Translations under genes and position numbers: made by a program
Origin: Kiritimatiellia bacterium
Lineage (GTDB): Bacteria; Verrucomicrobiota; Kiritimatiellia; RFP12; JAAYLN01
Reading direction: 5' to 3'
Length of the DNA stretch: 62,263 bases
Assembly: GCA_017509565.1 (NCBI GenBank)
Contig: JAFWPM010000069.1
Coordinates: forward strand, 1 to 62,263
The notes under the pieces: model-generated
Told to the model about the DNA's origin: nothing
Databases searched by the model: none
Seen by the model: only the letters and a program-made list of their open reading frames with translations
In this document: positions 35,557-43,757 of the stretch, in pieces
Numbering within the stretch: position 1 is the stretch's first letter
Layout of the letters: every line of letters starts with the position of its first letter

Positions 35557-35630
35557 AGTAAGCCTTTCTTAGTGATGTAGAAATTTTACGCTTTATCGGC
35601 GAAAAAGGCAACCCCCGACGCAAATGTGCG

Positions 35631-35792: not shown

Positions 35793-35823
35793 TGAACCGG
35801 GGTGGGGGATTGGGGTATCCTAT
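35793..35823 (+). promoter_or_regulatory. Putative ECF-type promoter
   Basis: TGAACC-16bp-GTATCCTAT directly before the sigma ATG. Confidence 0.4.
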
Positions 35824-35830
35824 ATATAGG

Positions 35831-38800
35831 ATGACTTTAGTTGAAGAATTGAGAACGGATCGCGAAAGGGGCGCAAGGCGTCTCGAAAGCGAATACAAGG
35901 CGGGGTTGATGACGCTCGCCAGAAACTTCTGCGTCGACGAAAGCGACGCTGAGGAGCTGGTCAACCGCACTTTCGCCGCCGTTGTCGAGGGAATCGACGA
36001 CTACCTGGAGCAGTCGGCCTTCTTCGGCTGGATGTGCCAGATTCTAAGAAACATCCACGCAAAGGACATCCGGCGCAAGGAGCATGGAGCGACCGTATAT
36101 CCGGGCGATGTTCCCGATTTCCCGGACGAGGGGGAGTCCGACCGCGTATACCGGGAACTGGACGCGATGCTTTTGCGCGAAGCCGTGGCAAAGCTGCCAC
36201 CAGACCAGCGCGAGCTCGTTGTCCTACACTATTTCATGGACATACCGATCGGCCGTATCGCGAAGATTCTCACGACGCCGGAGGGGACGGTCAAGCGCAG
36301 GCTCCACTACGCGCGCAAGGCTCTTGGCGCAAAACTCGGCGTCGCGATGAAAAAGCCGGGCGGCAAGGCGCTGCTCGTCGCGCTCGCCCTCTGCGGCCTC
36401 ACCACGCTCGGCGCGGCGGTCCACAACCTCGCCAATAATGGCGGGACACGGGACACGGGCGGCGAAACCGCAATAGAGGGGAGCGCGGCCGCGGGCGACG
36501 CCGAAACCGGCGAGACGGTCGGGGCCGGCGACGGGACAGGCTCGACAGGCGAGACCATCTCCAGTCCAGCAAGCTCTTCCGCCCTTTCCTTCTTAAACCT
36601 TCACCCCTTCACCCCTTCAACTATACGAATCCAGGAGCAAAACATGAACGCAACAGCAAAAACCGCAGCGGTCCTCGCGTCCGCGCTCGCCCTGCAAACG
36701 GCAGCCCCCCTTGTCGCCACCGGAAGCACAATCTCGCTCACGACGAAGGACGCCTCCGGCCAGTCCAGCTTCGACAAGTGGGACATCTCGGGCGGCGGAA
36801 CCAACGCGCCCAGCGCCGAAAACGACTATGTCGTGGCTGGCAACCTCCACATTCGCGTCATCTACAACCGCACGTTTGGCGGCAATTCGATCACGTTCGG
36901 AACCGGAACCGCGTCCGGCACCCAGGGCGGACTCGTCGTCTCGCGCGGGGACTCCAGCGTGAGCCACAGCATCGGGTTCGGAAAAAACGGCGCCATCCTG
37001 CAGAACGGCTACTTCACGACATGGGAAAGCGATCGGACGCCGCGCATCATCTCCGCCGGTCCTCTCACCGTGACGGCTCCGGAGAGCAACCCGTTCCGCA
37101 TCGCCGCAGCCGAGGTTGACACAAGAGTTACCGCAACATCTTTCAACACCAACAACGCTTGGTCGATTGAGGCTCCAATCAAGGGGGATGCCGGAACGGC
37201 GCTAATGCTCTGCGCCGGCGGCGTAAGGGGTTCTCTCGTTATTCCGGCAAGTACCAACTCCTTCACGATTAGGGGGAGCATGGCGGAGTTCTACGGAAAG
37301 CTCATCGTGAGCGGCGGCCTTGCCGGAAGCGCCCGCGAAGCTGTCCCGGTAAACGCCCTTTTCTTCAAAGGCGGAGATGTGGTCGGCGGATCGATTGTCG
37401 TTGAGAATGACGCGACCGCGACGTTTGAGAGCCTTGCCGTGAATGGTTCCGTCGTCGTCCAGAGCGGCGCGAAGGTCATGATGCGCTACACGGACCGAAC
37501 ACTCACGACGGCGGGCCTCGAACTTCAGGCCGATTCGATCCTGCTCGTGAACAACAAGGTCGGGGAAAGTAAGTGCGGCAAGATCGCCGTTACGGAATCG
37601 CTGACCGTCGAAAAGGGCGCTATCGTCCGGCTCGAAACCCATCCCTATTCCGGATCCAACTTCGACCCCTACGACTGGGTCGTCCTGACGCTCCCGGCGA
37701 ACAAGGGCACGATCCCGCTGGAGAACTTCGAATGCCCGGACGTTGACGGCATGCCTCCCTGCACGCTTTCGACAAACCTCGTGGACGGCGTGTGGCAGCT
37801 CGTGATCCACAAGGACGCGCACGACGTCCTGAAGGCGAACGACGACAACGACACGACGATCTCCCATGCGCTTCCCTCCGCGTGCACCAACGCCACGTCT
37901 TGGAAGAGCGGCAATGCTCCTGCGCCTGGAAAGATGTATGTTGCGGGAAACGGCGTCGGAGGCCTTTCCTCGACAACCTATCCCGTCATCCGCACCCCGT
38001 ATTACCCCAAAACTGCGACGGAGTTTGTCTTCGCAGGCGACACGCTCGCCCTCGGTGACCGTTCACTAGTTCTGCCGTGTTCAAAGGATGTCACGTTTCC
38101 CCGGCTTGTCCTTTCCGCCAACAGCACCTACGTCCTTTCGCTCGCGTCCGTGCCGTCGTATCTGCGCGGAACACTCTATCTGCGAACGTCGAACGACAAC
38201 TCTTCGCAGAAGATCCAGGCCTACATGCGCGGCCTTAACACCGTCGCCGCCGAGGTCTCGGGACCGGGAACGCTCTTCGTCACGGGCCGCAACGGTTCGG
38301 GCAACCCCTACGGCGACATCGAGTTCACCGCGCTCAACACGAACTACACCGGTCGCATCAAGGTTTACGCGAACGTCAGCAGCACAGCGGCCGGAACAGT
38401 CTCCTACAAGCACGAGCGCGTCTTCGTGACGGACGCCCGCAATCTCGGCGGGGCGCTCGACGAGTTCCGCGCCGACGCCCTCGAACTCGCCGACTACTCG
38501 GTGCTTGAGGCGCGCAACGACGTGGACATGAATGTCGCGAACCGCGGCGTGAAGGTGACCGGCAACGCCGGCTTCGCCGCGCCGGAGGACGTCACGCTCG
38601 CGATCTCGAACGACATCACTTGGAACGGCACGGCCCGCAAGACCGGCGCCGGAACGCTCGCCCTCGGCGGCGCGCCGCTCATCGCCTCCGGCGCCAACGC
38701 AACCCTCGCCGTGGAGGAAGGGTTCCTCTCCGTCCGCTCGACTGGAGCCGTGGACGGCGTCACCGTCACGTTTGATAACGGCGCATACCTGCTGGTCGAT

Positions 38801-39109
38801 CCGGCGACGACGGACGCCAATCTCGCCAGCTTCGGCGCGGTGAATCTCGTCGCCAATCCCTTCGACGGGGAACTGCCCGTAGCCTTCAACCTCCCGGAGG
38901 GGGCCGGTTCCAACTACGTCGTGCGCGACATAGCCGTCTGCACCGTCGCCAACGAAGAGACTGCCAATGCGCTGGCTGTTTCGGCGGCGGCGAACACGCG
39001 CAAGATGCGCGGCCTCAGGGCGACCTATTCGACGCGCACAAACGGTGACGGCACCGTCACGGTCCTGGCCTCAATCGCGCCGCAGGCCTTCGTCATCGTG
39101 TTGCGCTAG
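35831..39109 (+). CDS. ECF sigma factor fused via a TM helix and linker to a secreted autotransporter-passenger-like beta-helix protein
   Basis: sigma2 'DAEELV..TF...F.GWMCQILRN', sigma4 'LPPDQRELVVLHYF...PEGTVKRRLHYARKAL'; hydrophobic segments; 'KTGAGTLALGG'; C-terminus 'AFVIVLR'. Confidence 0.85.
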   Translation: MTLVEELRTDRERGARRLESEYKAGLMTLARNFCVDESDAEELVNRTFAAVVEGIDDYLEQSAFFGWMCQILRNIHAKDIRRKEHGATVYPGDVPDFPDEGESDRVYRELDAMLLREAVAKLPPDQRELVVLHYFMDIPIGRIAKILTTPEGTVKRRLHYARKALGAKLGVAMKKPGGKALLVALALCGLTTLGAAVHNLANNGGTRDTGGETAIEGSAAAGDAETGETVGAGDGTGSTGETISSPASSSALSFLNLHPFTPSTIRIQEQNMNATAKTAAVLASALALQTAAPLVATGSTISLTTKDASGQSSFDKWDISGGGTNAPSAENDYVVAGNLHIRVIYNRTFGGNSITFGTGTASGTQGGLVVSRGDSSVSHSIGFGKNGAILQNGYFTTWESDRTPRIISAGPLTVTAPESNPFRIAAAEVDTRVTATSFNTNNAWSIEAPIKGDAGTALMLCAGGVRGSLVIPASTNSFTIRGSMAEFYGKLIVSGGLAGSAREAVPVNALFFKGGDVVGGSIVVENDATATFESLAVNGSVVVQSGAKVMMRYTDRTLTTAGLELQADSILLVNNKVGESKCGKIAVTESLTVEKGAIVRLETHPYSGSNFDPYDWVVLTLPANKGTIPLENFECPDVDGMPPCTLSTNLVDGVWQLVIHKDAHDVLKANDDNDTTISHALPSACTNATSWKSGNAPAPGKMYVAGNGVGGLSSTTYPVIRTPYYPKTATEFVFAGDTLALGDRSLVLPCSKDVTFPRLVLSANSTYVLSLASVPSYLRGTLYLRTSNDNSSQKIQAYMRGLNTVAAEVSGPGTLFVTGRNGSGNPYGDIEFTALNTNYTGRIKVYANVSSTAAGTVSYKHERVFVTDARNLGGALDEFRADALELADYSVLEARNDVDMNVANRGVKVTGNAGFAAPEDVTLAISNDITWNGTARKTGAGTLALGGAPLIASGANATLAVEEGFLSVRSTGAVDGVTVTFDNGAYLLVDPATTDANLASFGAVNLVANPFDGELPVAFNLPEGAGSNYVVRDIAVCTVANEETANALAVSAAANTRKMRGLRATYSTRTNGDGTVTVLASIAPQAFVIVLR

Positions 39110-39133: not shown

Positions 39134-42085
39134 ATGAACGCACCCTTGTTCCTCGCGGTGGCGGCCCTTGCCGCCACCGCCCCCGTCGGCACGGCCGCCG
39201 AAGCCGCGCCTTCCACCTCCCAACTTGATGCTGCGGCCCTTCAGGCCGCAGCCGACGGTGGCCCTGCCACCGCCACCCCCGGATTCGGCGGCTCGCTGGT
39301 CCTCCCCGGCGCGACATTCGCGCTTGGGTTCGCGGAGCCCGGCTGGAAGGCCACGCACGGCGGCGTGGACGATGCGCGGCAAGGCCCCGGCGCCTTCCGC
39401 GTCCGCGTCTGCTCCGATCCCGTCTACGTCCGCGGAAGCGCCGCCTTCTCCGAAGCGCCCGGCGGCGGAGTGCGCGCCGAATGGAACGCCGCGGCCGACT
39501 CCGATGCGCGCGTGGGCGAGTTCTTCGTGTCGGCGAACTTCCCGGTGGCGGACTTCGGCGGCGGCCGGGCCGTCCTCGACGGCGGGGCGCGCGACGTCGC
39601 GCTGCCCGCCGGAATGGCCGACGAGCCTCATCTTTTCCGGGGCAAGGTGTCGGCCCTGTCCCTCTTCGGCCGCGACGGCGCGGAACGCCTCGCCGTCGCC
39701 TTCGACGCGCCGTCCGAAATCCTCCTTCAGGACAACCGCAAATGGGGGAACGAGACCTTCACCCTCCGGCTGTTCGCCGGGTGTGGCTCGACCCTTCGCG
39801 CCGGCGAACGGGCCGCGCTCGCCGCGACGTTCCGCACGCCCTCCGCCGGGCTTCTCGCGCTCGGCCCGAAGCGCACGTGGAAGGCGGAACCCGGTCCCGA
39901 CTGGACCCCCGTCGCGACGGAGCCCTGGATCGAGCCGGGCAGCGCCCTCGACTTCTCCGGCGTCGTTCCGCACCACGCGCCAGCCGGGAAGTTCGGCCGC
40001 GTTATCGCCGTGGGCGACCACTTCGAGTTCGAGGGTCTTCCCGGCGTCCCGCAGCGCTTCTACGGCGTGAACATCAACGGGGAAGCCAACACGCCCTCGA
40101 CCCCCGAGGCCGCCGAGCGCTTCGCCGCCAATCTCGCCCGCATGGGCTACAACGCGCTCCGCATCCACCACCACGGGCGCGCGCTGCTCTCGGAGCCGGG
40201 CCACATAAACGAACCGGACCGCTGCGCGGACGATACCCGGCCGGACCCTGCCGCCATGGACCGCTTCGACGCGCTCGTCGCCGCGTGCGTCCGGCACGGC
40301 ATCTACCTCACCACCGACCTCTGCGTTTCGCGCTCGCACTACGTCAAGTGGCGTTCGCTCGGCATCGACCGCGACGGCTACATCACGCGCATCCACGACT
40401 ACAAGGTCCTTTGCTCGTTCTGGGAACCCGCCTACTCCAACCTATGCGCCTGGTCGCGGAATTTCCTCTGCCACGTGAATCCCTACACCGGGCGCAGCCT
40501 CGCCGAGGAACCCGCCCTCTGCACCCTGGCGCTCATCAACGAGGGGAACCTCGGCAACCAAGGCTCCGGCGCCCTCCGTAAACTGCCCGGCGTCAAGGAG
40601 GCGTGGGAGGAGTGGCTTGCGGCGAAGTCAGGCGACCCGGCGTTCGCCGGAATCCCGCAGTCGTTCCCGGCTGACCTCTACGCCGATGACGGCGCCACGC
40701 CTGAGCGCCGCCACGCCGCCGCGTTCGCGCAGTTCCTCGCGGACCGCGAAATCCGCCTCTTCGACCGGCTCTCCGCCTTCGTCCGCGACGAACTGCGCTG
40801 CGCCGCGCCCCTTTCGAACCTGTCCTCGTGGTACGACCCCGTCCAGTACCAGCTTCCGCGCTCGCGCTTTGATTACGTGGACGGCCATTCCTACATCGAC
40901 CACCCTTCCTTTCTCGACGAGCAGTGGAAACTGCCCTCGCGCTGCCCGAACGCGAACCCCGTGGGCGGCGCCGCCGCCGGCGTGCCGCCAGTCGCCTACC
41001 GGCGTCTCCTGGAAAAGCCCTTCTGCATCACGGAATGGAACTACAGCGGCCCCGGCCGCTACCGGGGACTCGGCGGGATTGCATTCGGAACGCTGGGGGC
41101 GCTCCAGGACTGGTCCGGGATGTGGCGCTTCGCCTGGTGCCACGGCCGGGAAGGCGTGGAGTCTCCGGAAACGAAGCGCATGGGCTACTTCGACATGGCG
41201 GGCGATCCGCTTTCGCTCGCCGCTGAGCGCGCGGCGCTCTGCCTCTTCCTCCGGGCTGACCAGGCGCCGCTTGGCGCCGAAGCGCCGCTGGCCCTCGACG
41301 AAGCCGTCCTGCGCGACCCCGCCGCCGGCGCCCAAAAAATCGGCTCGCAAGTTCGCCTCGCCGATGCGTGGCGCAGCCGCGTGGGAACGGTCCTTGGCGG
41401 ACGGCGGCCGCCAGCCGCGCCCGCCGGGGACGGCTCCGTCCGCGTCGATCCGGCCGCAGGGACGTTCGTCATCGACACGCCCCGCACGGCCGGCGGCTTC
41501 GCCGAATCGGGCGTCCTCGATTGCGGCCCGCTGAGGTTCGAAATCGTCGAAAGTCAAAAAGTCGAAAGTCGGCACCCGGCTGGCGCTCGTCGGCCGCCGA
41601 ATGTCGAAAAATCGACAGCCGACATTCGGCAACCGACATCCGGAGACCTGCGACCTTCCGGGCTTTCAACCTTTCAACCTTTCAATCTTTCAACGGACTG
41701 TAGCGGCGGCGCAGTCGCCGCCACGGTCTGGGCCTCGTCGCTTGACGACGCTCCTATCGCAGAGTCTTCCCGCATCCTGGTGACGCACCTCACCGACGTG
41801 CAGAACTGCGGCATCGAATACGCCGACCCGGAGCTCACGACACTCCTGAAATGGGGAGGACTTCCGCACCTCATGCGCAACGGCGCGGCCGATGTCTCAA
41901 TCACGCTTGCGCCGGCGGGCGGCGGGGCGGAGCCGCCGGTCGTCTGGCGGCTTTCGCCTTCCGGACGCAGGCTTGGCCGCATTCCATCGCAGTTCGACTC
42001 CGGTTCCGGCATTCTCCGCTTCACCGCCCGCACCAACTACGATCCGGATGCGGCGACCTTCCTCTACGAAATCTGCAGGTCCTGA
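39134..42085 (+). CDS. Secreted clan GH-A (GH5-like) glycoside hydrolase
   Basis: Signal peptide; 'RFYGVN', 'GYNALRIHH', 'HVNPYTG', 'INE', 'ITEWN'. Confidence 0.75.
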   Translation: MNAPLFLAVAALAATAPVGTAAEAAPSTSQLDAAALQAAADGGPATATPGFGGSLVLPGATFALGFAEPGWKATHGGVDDARQGPGAFRVRVCSDPVYVRGSAAFSEAPGGGVRAEWNAAADSDARVGEFFVSANFPVADFGGGRAVLDGGARDVALPAGMADEPHLFRGKVSALSLFGRDGAERLAVAFDAPSEILLQDNRKWGNETFTLRLFAGCGSTLRAGERAALAATFRTPSAGLLALGPKRTWKAEPGPDWTPVATEPWIEPGSALDFSGVVPHHAPAGKFGRVIAVGDHFEFEGLPGVPQRFYGVNINGEANTPSTPEAAERFAANLARMGYNALRIHHHGRALLSEPGHINEPDRCADDTRPDPAAMDRFDALVAACVRHGIYLTTDLCVSRSHYVKWRSLGIDRDGYITRIHDYKVLCSFWEPAYSNLCAWSRNFLCHVNPYTGRSLAEEPALCTLALINEGNLGNQGSGALRKLPGVKEAWEEWLAAKSGDPAFAGIPQSFPADLYADDGATPERRHAAAFAQFLADREIRLFDRLSAFVRDELRCAAPLSNLSSWYDPVQYQLPRSRFDYVDGHSYIDHPSFLDEQWKLPSRCPNANPVGGAAAGVPPVAYRRLLEKPFCITEWNYSGPGRYRGLGGIAFGTLGALQDWSGMWRFAWCHGREGVESPETKRMGYFDMAGDPLSLAAERAALCLFLRADQAPLGAEAPLALDEAVLRDPAAGAQKIGSQVRLADAWRSRVGTVLGGRRPPAAPAGDGSVRVDPAAGTFVIDTPRTAGGFAESGVLDCGPLRFEIVESQKVESRHPAGARRPPNVEKSTADIRQPTSGDLRPSGLSTFQPFNLSTDCSGGAVAATVWASSLDDAPIAESSRILVTHLTDVQNCGIEYADPELTTLLKWGGLPHLMRNGAADVSITLAPAGGGAEPPVVWRLSPSGRRLGRIPSQFDSGSGILRFTARTNYDPDAATFLYEICRS
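41546..41694. repeat. Palindromic octamer-repeat element inserted in-frame in the GH gene
   Basis: GTCGAAAG-like left arm, central inverted repeat gccgaatgtcg/cgacattcggc, CTTTCAAC-like x4 right arm. Confidence 0.7.
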
Positions 42086-42104
42086 TTTTTCTCACGAAAC
42101 GACC

Positions 42105-43757
42105 ATGAAAAACTTCTCTCGCGCGCTTCTCGCAGGCACCCTCGCCGCCCTCGCCGCCGCAGCCGACCAGACCGCCGACCAGGCCGTCCCCGACGGCGCG
42201 GCAACGCAACGAATCGACGGCACAACGCTCGCCTGGTCGCTTCCCCCCACCGCCCGCATCGAGGGCGAGCGGCTGATCGTGGAAGTGCCGAAGGGCGACC
42301 CGGAGCGACTGGTGGAGGCGCACGCGCAGTGCACCGCGCAGCTCGACCTCTCGCCCTACCTCGCCGGTGGGCGCGGCCTGCATCTCTCCGTCCGCGTCCG
42401 CGCCAGCGACGTCACCAAGCCGGACTACCGCTGGAACGGCGTCAAGTGCATGTTCCGGTATGTTTCCGACGCGACCGGCCAGCTCGCCCACCCCGGCGCC
42501 GTGCTGCCGATCGGCTCGTTCGACTGGCGCACGGCCGACCTGCACCTGAATTTCCTCAACACCCAAGGTCTGCCAATCGACGGCAAGGCGACGCTCGTCC
42601 TCGGCCTCCAGGGCTGCTCGGGCCGCGCCGAGTTCGACCTTTCGTCGCTCTCCTTCGTCTCCGAGGACGTGGGCGTCCCGTTCGCCGAATACCGCGACTA
42701 CGTGGTGGAATACCCGGAGGGCGAAGGACCGGACGATCTCGGCCGCCGGCGCTGGCGCGGCTGCATGTCGCCCGGCGGGCGCTACACGACGGAGGAGGAC
42801 GTCGAAACCCTCCACCGGTGGGGCGCGACCCTCATCCGCTACCAGATCAACCGCAACTGGTGGAAGCTGGACGACAACCAGGACCTCGACGAATACGCGC
42901 GCTGGGTTGACTGGCGCCTCGACAACGTCGAAGACGTGCTGCGCTGGTGCGAAACGCGCGGCATGAAGGTCTGCATCGACCTACACGCCCTGCCGGGCGG
43001 CAAATGGGGCGAGCGCGAACGCGAGCCGCTGGAAATGAACATGTTCAGCGACGACCGCTACGCCGCCGCCTTCGTCGATACCTGGCGGCGCATCGCGACG
43101 CGCTTCAAGGGCCATCCCGCGCTCTACGGCTACGACCTCGTGAACGAGCCGACGCAGCGCCGTCCCCTCAAGCACAGCTTCTGGCAGCTCCAGCTCGATG
43201 CCGCGCGCGCCATCCGCGAAATCGACCCCGTGACGCCGATCGTCTTCGCGGGCAACAACGCCTCGCACGCCGACGACTTCCGCTACCTCGTGCCGATTCC
43301 GCTGAACAACGTCATCTACGAGGTGCACTGCTACCATCCGCACGCCTTCACGCACCAGGGCGTCTCCGGGAACGCGCGCTCCACGCCGGAAAAGCCGATC
43401 ACGTGGCCGGGCGTCGATCCGCGCACCGGCGAAGTCTGGAACAAGGACTGGCTGCGGAAAAAGCTCCAGCCCGTGCGCGACTTCCAGCTGCGGCACAAGG
43501 CCCGGATATTCGTGGGCGAATTCAGCGCGGCGGCCTGGGCGCTGGGGGCGGAGAACTACCTGCGCGACTGCATCGACCTCTTCGAGGAATACGGCTGGGA
43601 CTGGACATACCACGCCTTCCGCGAAGCGCCGTGCTGGGACGTGGAGCAGGAAGGCGAGACCAACCCCGAAATGCGGCCCGCGACCGAAGACACCCCGCGC
43701 AAGAAGGCCCTGCTTGAGGGGTTCCAGAGGACCCCGGCTTTGCAGCCGGGGCGCTGA
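42105..43757 (+). CDS. GH5 (cellulase family) glycoside hydrolase
   Basis: Signal peptide; 'IDLH', 'YDLVNEP', 'HCYHPHAFTHQG', 'FVGEFS', 'WTYHAFRE'. Confidence 0.88.
   Translation: MKNFSRALLAGTLAALAAAADQTADQAVPDGAATQRIDGTTLAWSLPPTARIEGERLIVEVPKGDPERLVEAHAQCTAQLDLSPYLAGGRGLHLSVRVRASDVTKPDYRWNGVKCMFRYVSDATGQLAHPGAVLPIGSFDWRTADLHLNFLNTQGLPIDGKATLVLGLQGCSGRAEFDLSSLSFVSEDVGVPFAEYRDYVVEYPEGEGPDDLGRRRWRGCMSPGGRYTTEEDVETLHRWGATLIRYQINRNWWKLDDNQDLDEYARWVDWRLDNVEDVLRWCETRGMKVCIDLHALPGGKWGEREREPLEMNMFSDDRYAAAFVDTWRRIATRFKGHPALYGYDLVNEPTQRRPLKHSFWQLQLDAARAIREIDPVTPIVFAGNNASHADDFRYLVPIPLNNVIYEVHCYHPHAFTHQGVSGNARSTPEKPITWPGVDPRTGEVWNKDWLRKKLQPVRDFQLRHKARIFVGEFSAAAWALGAENYLRDCIDLFEEYGWDWTYHAFREAPCWDVEQEGETNPEMRPATEDTPRKKALLEGFQRTPALQPGR

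Follow-up and report, generated by a model that had tools for sequence, protein, structure and literature searches.

An extracytoplasmic function sigma factor carried in one open frame with a secreted beta-helix protein and a start-like internal junction in Kiritimatiellia

The window analyzed here is a stretch of 62,263 nucleotides (nt) from a Kiritimatiellia bacterium (contig JAFWPM010000069.1 of assembly GCA_017509565.1, a 3.2-Mb metagenome-assembled genome, MAG), and the element under study is a single open frame of 1092 codons on its forward strand (35831-39109), with the ATG at 35831 and the stop codon at 39107-39109. The encoded fusion runs from an extracytoplasmic function (ECF) sigma factor with regions sigma2 and sigma4 through a transmembrane helix, a 74-residue linker, a Shine-Dalgarno (SD)-type word followed by a start codon (AGGAG-N6-ATG), a signal-peptide-like segment and two beta-helix domains to the tail AFVIVLR. 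The original prediction, made from the letters of the window alone, had described a 1092-residue frame with these elements, and each of them was found in its predicted position. The listing of open reading frames extends the frame further upstream to an ATG at 35624 (1161 residues). The alignments of paralogs and homologs begin at MTLVEELR or MDIVEELR, and 35831 is therefore the supported start. The features of the locus and of the genes behind it are as follows.

35793-35822, + strand: putative ECF-type promoter, TGAACC (35793-35798), 15-nt spacer and GGTATC (35814-35819); motif read by eye
35831-36355, + strand: ECF sigma core, residues 1-175 (Pfam, NCBIfam)
35891-36079 and 36167-36325, + strand: sigma2 (residues 21-83) and sigma4 (residues 113-165) within that core
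36365-36421, + strand: transmembrane anchor KALLVALALCGLTTLGAAV, residues 179-197 (sequence, hydrophobicity)
36422-36643, + strand: low-complexity linker rich in G, T, E, A and S, residues 198-271
36633-36646, + strand: predicted internal translation initiation region, AGGAG (36633-36637), 6-nt spacer and ATG (36644-36646), then AAC
36644-36724, + strand: signal-peptide-like segment MNATAKTAAVLASALALQTAAPLVATG, residues 272-298 of the fusion, 1-27 of the internal product
36725-39082, + strand: passenger, two predicted tandem right-handed beta-helix domains, model residues about 27-393 and 394-813 (AlphaFold2, VIA-align)
39083-39109, + strand: C-terminal tail PQAFVIVLR plus stop codon, a hydrophobic run with Arg at the very C-terminus
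39134-42085, + strand: 983-residue protein with N-terminal signal peptide, 25 nt past the stop codon of the fusion
42102-43757, + strand: cellulase-family gene of glycoside hydrolase family 5 (GH5; Pfam PF00150, E 6.5e-26)

The N-terminal part of the fusion belongs to the ECF (group 4) sigma-70 factors, as it consists of sigma2 and sigma4 only and passes the profile threshold. Pfam Sigma70_r2 (PF04542) matches residues 21-83 with 25.3 bits (cut-off 24), Sigma70_r4_2 (PF08281) matches residues 113-165 with E 1.6e-13 and 50.5 bits (cut-off 25.7), and NCBIfam TIGR02937 (sigma70-ECF) reaches 73.5 bits (cut-off 42.9); both regions of the complete sigma2/sigma4 module read from the letters are thus borne out above the cut-offs. 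The nearest model at hand from the Planctomycetes-Verrucomicrobia-Chlamydiae (PVC) clade, TIGR02989 of the Rhodopirellula/Verrucomicrobium ECF family, gave 45.8 bits, under its cut-off of 124.55. With sigma4 ending at about residue 168 and the helix beginning at residue 179, the gap of about 10 residues leaves no room for an anti-sigma domain. Zinc-finger and anti-sigma Pfam families gave no match in the fusion at E <= 1. The helix KALLVALALCGLTTLGAAV is preceded by KKPGGK, and its motif ALALCGLTALGAAV is kept across paralogs. The statement that no anti-sigma gene is adjacent also stands, the upstream neighbor being a permease on the opposite strand and the downstream neighbors the 983-residue secreted protein and then the GH5 gene.

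Upstream of many of the 31 sigma copies collected, a TGAAC(C) or TGAAG word recurs about 15-17 nt before GGTAT or ATTATTAAT, and TGAACC-N15-GGTATC upstream of the fusion is a putative ECF-type promoter. The sigma ATG lies only about 12 nt past the GGTAT word in the window and in locus L022, with the leader near-absent. A GAGG(G)A word is present in many copies 20-30 nt ahead of the sigma ATG, too distant for a normal SD. An internal promoter in the linker was considered and dropped, as reading by eye, with no promoter scan, gave only a TTCAACC-like word near the junction and no matching -10 element.

The linker is kept open in the sigma frame. Over 30 copies with DNA (6249 nt), frames 0, +1 and +2 contain 0, 14 and 33 stop codons, respectively, and among these copies the linker varies from 42 to 88 codons with many insertions and deletions, all of them in frame. 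In a DNA contig of a different sample, 18 nt (six codons) are deleted in frame at 36535, and a DNA contig from an independent study (X8, record 11) is unbroken over 35830-36791. From the absence of in-frame stops, the in-frame indels and the unbroken independent contigs, the linker sequences argue that ribosomes starting at the sigma start are meant to read through and that selection holds the frame open. A stop codon in the linkers of homologs, which the original prediction named as evidence for a strain mutation or an assembly error, was found in none of the 30 DNA copies and in none of 13 further loci reaching past the linker. The GC content at third codon positions (GC3) is 0.60 in the linker versus 0.77 in the flanking sigma and passenger parts, and it falls to 0.41 in the last 15 codons before the internal ATG, where nucleotide-level constraints therefore override codon preference.

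The internal ATG at 36644 lies in frame with the sigma start (36644-35831 = 813 = 3 x 271) and encodes Met272. It is present in all 30 DNA copies. The mean energy of the duplex with the anti-SD sequence is -6.8 kcal/mol at the junctions (n=30), compared with -5.7 at the starts of stand-alone secreted proteins (n=59), -3.05 at the weak SD of the sigma starts (n=28) and -2.45 at other in-frame ATGs (n=381). Duplexes at or below -6 kcal/mol are found at 70% of the 30 junctions versus 11.5% of the 381 other in-frame ATGs of the same open frames. The residue after Met is N or K at 28/30 junctions and at 39/59 stand-alone starts, compared with 20/381 of the other Mets. Furthermore, the base composition from -30 to -1 is alike at junctions (A 0.40, C 0.29, G 0.15, T 0.16) and stand-alone starts (A 0.36, C 0.28, G 0.22, T 0.14), and stand-alone leaders read in frame give TKEQT-M and NKENT-M where the fusion junctions give IQEQN-M and SQGEN-M. 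In a clade with Val at the position of the internal Met, the one locus with DNA (L033) carries AAGGAG-N8-GTG. By all these sequence measures the junction looks like an ordinary start site of the genome's stand-alone secreted proteins.

In one related genome (G003, loci L013-L032), the DNA ttcaacttttcaaccgataactcacaaggagaaaacATGaac, about 36 nt before the internal ATG, encodes FNFSTDNSQGEN-MN and is nearly identical across paralogs, and the sigma parts of the same paralogs are only 55-75% identical despite this. Such near-identity suggests that the junction undergoes concerted evolution or is a hot spot of recombination. A motif FN(F/L)ST, related to the G003 peptide, recurs in many database homologs.

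The segment after Met272 has the parts of a signal peptide when read by eye, with K277, the core TAAVLASALAL and a c-region with a possible cleavage site, PLVA|TG; in alignments it falls on the signal peptides at the N-termini of stand-alone homologs, and it is disordered in the AlphaFold2 (AF2) model (model residues 1-24). Hydrophobicity was scored by the best 19-residue window on a biological hydrophobicity scale: the first helix has a median of -1.64 kcal/mol, with 105/118 sequences at or below 0, and the second segment has a median of +4.77, with 0/118 at or below 1.5, close to the genome's ordinary signal peptides (median +4.18). The first helix is thus a membrane anchor, and the second segment is too weakly hydrophobic to anchor, like cleavable signal peptides. 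As a non-anchoring segment it would pass the translocon after the anchor, and one chain can therefore sit with its N-terminus inside and the remainder outside. The original prediction had argued for two products from a topological conflict between two hydrophobic segments in one chain; these hydrophobicity values do not support such a conflict, and we rejected the argument.

The C-terminal 821 residues matched no Pfam or NCBIfam family. The AF2 model of this part, built with 80 sequences, is all-beta, with a mean predicted local distance difference test (pLDDT) score of 87.9 and a predicted template modelling (pTM) score of 0.83. A Foldseek search against the PDB gave nothing at E <= 1e-3 (best E 1.4e-3), and the fold was assigned by VIA-align over 48,161 chains. 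Residues 27-393 align best with 7jvi_B, a beta-helix from the capybara gut (Z 16.1, root-mean-square deviation 3.5, 268 aligned residues), and about the same region aligns with the autotransporter passengers Pet, Ssp, Hap, IcsA, UpaB and pertactin (Z 12.5-15.7). Residues 394-800 align with PL6 lyases, AlgE4 epimerase, chondroitinase B and polygalacturonases (Z 10-12). The passenger is accordingly modeled, at fold level only, as two right-handed parallel beta-helix domains of the pectate-lyase fold, in agreement with the autotransporter-passenger-like beta-helix named by the original prediction. The first 24 and the last 8 model residues lie outside the fold. No C-terminal beta-barrel translocator was found, as Pfam gave no match and the AF2 model, after a small mixed subdomain, finishes in a loose tail of 8 residues.

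The relatives of the passenger are mostly stand-alone proteins (671 representatives at E <= 1e-3). Among the best 149 of these 671, 116 are 700-900 residues long, 109 end in the tail and two or three are fused to a sigma factor. Each full-length stand-alone relative among the matches listed starts with a signal peptide of its own and aligns from near the internal Met onward; P0244 shares 69% identity, and in P0247 residues 10-821 of the query correspond to residues 9-803 of the protein. These alignments place the ancestry of the passenger among stand-alone secreted proteins.

The tail itself is shared much more widely. It is a coil with falling pLDDT in model residues 814-821, and 94 open reading frames of this genome end by pattern in a 5-6-residue hydrophobic run plus Arg or Lys, 90 of which remain after a composition filter. 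About 80 of these roughly 90 are stand-alone secreted proteins with MK or MN signal peptides and A/C-rich leaders containing AGGAG-like words (tails PFVMVVR, AFVLVVR and ATVISLR, for example; contigs C99, C111, C229, C284, C291 and others). The distant sigma fusions that have no internal start carry the tail as well. Models of sorting signals (PEP-CTERM, the C-terminal domain of the type IX secretion system, LPXTG and others) gave no match at E <= 1 to the whole fusion or to its 821-residue part, and a tail of 6-7 residues may escape such profiles. The hydrophobic-Arg tail could serve these Kiritimatiellae as a new kind of C-terminal signal for sorting or recognition. A search for other N-terminal modules on tail-bearing proteins was negative: nine genes with long upstream open frames were inspected, and their upstream parts were Arg-rich, low-GC3, non-coding read-through.

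The fusion is one of an expanded family. The sigma part has 11 copies in this MAG (G000) at 53-65% identity, and all 11 run in frame through the helix motif, a linker of 42-88 residues, an ATG and an Ala-rich hydrophobic segment into a large and mostly unrelated C-terminal part, with a purine-rich word 6-9 bases before the in-frame ATG. Among 31 related genomes searched at E <= 1e-20, the sigma part was found in three, namely this one, one of the same genus (19 copies) and one of a different family (2 copies); among 301 sampled genomes of the class searched at E <= 1e-30, it was found in 2. In two related genomes (G003 and G029), 19 of the 20 analyzed copies continue in frame to the SD-ATG, and the remaining one (L029) is cut by the contig end; a further fragment beginning inside the linker precedes an ortholog of the passenger described here. 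A database search for proteins of 600-1911 residues gave 247 matches at E <= 1e-10, the few named ones being sigma-70 family factors from Kiritimatiellae MAGs, and a second search for proteins of 149-475 residues gave 205. The nearest stand-alone sigma factor found is only 42% identical (G003:C187).

Across the family the head is constant and the passenger varies. Of 120 listed homologs from Kiritimatiellae gut MAGs, 118 have the internal Met and the hydrophobic segment, and their passengers fall into 31 similarity clusters, so that the arrangement proposed for testing (transmembrane helix, linker, SD-ATG and signal peptide conserved with a varying passenger) is what the homologs display. On a tree of the sigma-plus-helix part, built by FastTree only, the passenger cluster changes 71 times, compared with a minimum of 20 and a mean of 86.3 over 300 shuffles (standard deviation 2.1, lowest 80). 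Of the sigma pairs with 50-89% identity, 5-8% have passengers from the same cluster. In seven orthologs of the fusion, the passenger is 80-100% identical from QEQN-MNATAKT onward, and the sigma part reaches only 55-60%. In G003 the paralogs have almost identical DNA from the junction through the first half of the signal peptide, and the exchange point therefore seems to lie within the signal peptide.

Two side observations concern smaller members of the family. A short subfamily of 325-375 residues, comprising P0128 of this genome (contig C311, 325 residues) and about 40 database proteins, follows the same plan with an outer part of about 80 residues of the form GDEYQFI.SGD ... ALDVRHH ... tail, which is disordered in AF2 and represents a minimal passenger with no obvious binding domain. 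In addition, a 53-residue fragment of the sigma core (residues 50-102, 47-50% identity) lies at G000:C240:15796-15954, about 2.8 kb from a full paralog and near the contig end; it is a relic, or else assembly has truncated the copy.

The genomic context is compatible with carbohydrate sensing. The original prediction spoke of downstream glycoside hydrolases, which holds for the GH5 gene (PF00150) and is left without support for the 983-residue protein, for which neither a Pfam family nor a PDB sequence match was found; we take motifs in it (NEGN) to be reminiscent of clan-A glycoside hydrolases. Carbohydrate-enzyme genes stand behind three of the five other paralogs examined: paralog C311 is followed by a protein with an FGE-sulfatase domain and a GH5 gene, C169 by a SASA esterase and a pectate-lyase-like protein, and C240 by a BNR/sortilin-repeat protein, and C314 and C238 are followed mostly by unassigned secreted proteins, with a GDPD phosphodiesterase-family gene behind C314. 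These neighbors fit a role of the fusion in carbohydrate sensing. The genome also encodes an M50 site-2 protease and an S41 C-terminal protease, both of them near-universal.

We suggest, with a probability of roughly 0.55, that the gene yields a membrane-tethered sigma factor lacking an anti-sigma domain, which proteolysis would release, and that translation from the internal start supplies the passenger as a free protein. In this expanded Kiritimatiellae family, one mRNA with one open frame would then give two proteins. The weak and nearly leaderless sigma start (35831) would produce few full-length tethered chains, in which sigma is cytoplasmic and the disordered linker of 45-90 residues, the passenger and the tail lie outside the inner membrane. 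Held about 10 residues from the membrane and away from RNA polymerase or DNA, sigma would presumably be inactive until an outer cut, followed by a cut in the helix by the site-2 protease, set it free; the conserved helix, which contains Gly, Cys and Thr, would suit such a protease. The freed sigma could transcribe its own ECF-type promoter and the downstream carbohydrate-enzyme genes. Meanwhile the strong internal site (AGGAG-N6-ATG, 36644) would give many free passengers with a cleavable Sec signal peptide, exported and sorted like the approximately 80 stand-alone tail-bearing proteins. The tethered copy would thus have the same outer domain as the secreted product, and because both carry this identical domain, it could report on the ligand of the secreted product or on its export.

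Extending this, the sigma-helix-linker-start-signal-peptide head might be a portable cassette that turns genes for tail-bearing secreted proteins into self-reporting pairs by recombination in the start region or signal peptide, giving an abundant free protein and a rare sigma-tied copy with no anti-sigma factor, 11-20 times per genome and in dependence on the undescribed tail signal. The rare copy, tied to sigma by a linker that spans the periplasm, would report on its ligand or on sorting through the tail and be cut free to turn on the operon, so that a single polypeptide would signal across the envelope. We put this forward as a tentative possibility.

Several points weigh against the two-product reading. 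In the scheme itself, the inactivity of the tethered sigma and the outer cut are both assumed. The anti-SD sequence behind the duplex energies is generic, since a search of this MAG for the 16S 3' end pattern gave no match. Paralogs of the same genome are not independent data points, and in G003 the near-identical junctions inflate the counts through concerted evolution. RNA-library contigs (X16 and X17) cover 37168-37575 and a few 151-nt pieces; none of them reach the junction, and DNA carry-over is possible. The AF2 model of the short paralog P0128 gave no answer on the packing of the two hydrophobic segments, with pLDDT < 50 from residue 204. The search for proteins of 600-1911 residues was length-filtered and blind to split forms, and the search for shorter proteins returned many forms that are truncated or look out of frame. 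Several of these (P0142, P0144, P0185, P0195, P0218 and P0223) are Arg/Pro-rich and seem to be read out of frame past the helix or sigma4; they may be frameshift errors or decaying copies. Finally, the original prediction expected the internal ribosome-binding site and ATG to be conserved, which is true of the 30 DNA copies and 118/120 listed proteins and fails in 5 of 13 more distant loci, so that the internal start is not essential to the family. These five (L034, L036 and L046-L048, public MAG records) have sigma, helix, an outer part and a hydrophobic-Arg/Lys tail, with no internal SD, start codon or signal peptide, and because such distant members lack any internal start, the fused chain appears to be a working unit on its own.

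An alternative is that only the fused chain matters. The signal-peptide-like segment would then be a built-in first cleavage site, cut by signal peptidase or another periplasmic protease on export or ligand binding, the remaining sigma-helix-linker stub with its non-polar C-terminus would go to the C-terminal and site-2 proteases, and internal initiation would be a tolerated by-product. Distant members indeed do without the internal start, the second segment would be outside the membrane in the fused chain, and M50 and S41 proteases are present in the genome. A cleavage site, however, needs no SD, no ATG or GTG, no A-rich leader of low GC3 and no AAC or AAA as second codon, and all of these are conserved; moreover, a strong SD and ATG in an unstructured A-rich leader make initiation hard to avoid. 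For signal peptidase to act, the hydrophobic core normally has to lie in the membrane with its N-terminus inside, and the orientation after the first transmembrane helix is the opposite. A precedent exists in RsiV, for which signal peptidase is reported to be the ligand-gated site-1 protease (PMC6066255). On balance we regard the fused chain as sole product as rather unlikely.

The two products could also be made without any ligand sensing, as a secretion-coupled positive-feedback amplifier or as a means of bringing the mRNA to the membrane via the first helix, with export or tail sorting rather than polysaccharide as the signal. Every family member has the tail, even those whose outer part is short, disordered and devoid of an obvious binding domain, and passengers are swapped almost freely (71 changes versus a minimum of 20 and 86.3 when shuffled), which fits a generic mechanism. 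Yet 11-20 paralogs per genome with differing passengers and enzyme operons look like specific sensors, comparable to the RsgI paralogs, and a pure amplifier would lack an off state; we consider this decidedly unlikely. Close to refuted is the view that the fusion is an artefact or neutral, its stop lost by assembly error, recent mutation or recombination, or its translation ending unrecognized within the linker. The relaxed codon usage of the linker (GC3 0.60, and 0.41 before the ATG), the differing histories of sigma module and passenger and the frameshifted look of some short database forms past the helix would agree with it. Against it stand 0 in-frame stops versus 47 in the other two frames over 30 copies, continuity repeated in independent assemblies and three genomes, linker indels that stay in frame and the distance to the nearest stand-alone sigma (42% identity, G003:C187). 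Assembly error and strain mutation in particular were ruled out by the paralogs, the three genomes, the independent contigs and the 0/14/33 distribution of stops.

Among known systems, in-frame internal starts give two isoforms of IF2, ClpB and CheA, the short one being the C-terminal part of the long one. Both isoforms share a compartment in those cases, whereas here the long form would be a tethered transcription factor and the short form would be exported. Type Va autotransporters likewise have a long right-handed beta-helix passenger; unlike them, the fusion has no C-terminal beta-barrel, and folds of polysaccharide lyases and epimerases are just as good a match for the second half of its passenger.

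Sigma factors fused to transmembrane sensors have been described before. IutY of Pseudomonas putida (ECF243) is a sigma/anti-sigma hybrid subject to regulated proteolysis via Prc and RseP (PMC8999054), and it resembles the fusion in having an N-terminal ECF sigma, a single transmembrane helix and a periplasmic part in one polypeptide. It differs in its FecR-type anti-sigma domain and its TonB-dependent receptor, where the fusion here has a complete secreted protein with its own start, signal peptide and tail; no FecR Pfam match was found in the fusion, and its neighbors are the permease, the secreted 983-residue protein and the GH5 gene. In ECF52 (SCO4117 of Streptomyces coelicolor) and in ECF48 and ECF53, published accounts describe an ECF sigma, transmembrane helices, a proline-rich spacer and an extracytoplasmic carbohydrate-binding domain, with proteolytic release proposed (PMC5826349, PMC8999054). 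ECF52 is actinobacterial and has a zinc-finger domain, like those of zinc-binding anti-sigma (ZAS) factors, before the helix, and internal start, retained signal peptide and passenger swapping go unmentioned in those parts of the accounts. The fusion lies outside ECF52, ECF48 and ECF53, since its sigma4 ends at about residue 168, its helix starts at 179 and no zinc-finger match is present. The original prediction had also drawn a comparison with the planctomycete ECF57, characterized by WD40-like repeats in the C-terminal extension and by two conserved cysteines linking sigma2 and sigma4 (PMC8999054); a Pfam search, made with no ECF57 model, gave no WD40 match in the extension of the fusion, and membership is not supported.

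Two further systems are instructive. The RsgI/SigI pairs of Clostridium thermocellum are polysaccharide sensors released by an outer cleavage and then RseP (PMC10328401, PMC12203970). They share with the fusion family the many paralogs per genome, the differing outer carbohydrate-related domains and the control of polysaccharide-degrading enzymes, which here would be exerted by the freed sigma; they differ in that a non-ECF sigma is paired with a separate sensor protein, an anti-sigma factor containing an autoproteolytic domain, and in their Gram-positive host. In RsiV/SigV of Bacillus subtilis, signal peptidase is the ligand-gated first protease of sigma release (PMC6066255). By analogy, RsiV suggests a second, cis role for the signal-peptide-like segment in the fused chain, although RsiV is a separate anti-sigma factor with its cleavage site directly past its only transmembrane helix and in the normal orientation. 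In the literature searched, no description of Kiritimatiellae ECF sigma fusions, of sigma fusions with an internal start and signal peptide or of the tail signal was found; neither Kiritimatiellae nor Lentisphaerae appear in the main text of the ECF re-classification, whose Supplementary Text S2 and Table S2 may hold a matching group. Relative to the described systems, the new elements are a direct tether with no anti-sigma module and a whole secreted protein with retained start and signal peptide, hence a probable second product. The expansion per genome with free passenger exchange and the link to the short C-terminal hydrophobic-Arg tail are new as well.

The described ECF sigma factors with fused sensors, few of which have been studied, carry an anti-sigma module in the portions of the accounts examined. 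If both products are made, a single gene would supply sensor and effector with identical ligand specificity by construction, which would be a compact way for a polysaccharide degrader to match its regulators to its enzymes. With about 90 proteins per genome bearing it, the shared tail suggests a sorting route that has yet to be studied, in a gut phylum of which little is known. With more than 450 database proteins, expanded per genome and shuffled in their passengers, the family may offer a natural library for orthogonal sensor-sigma switches.

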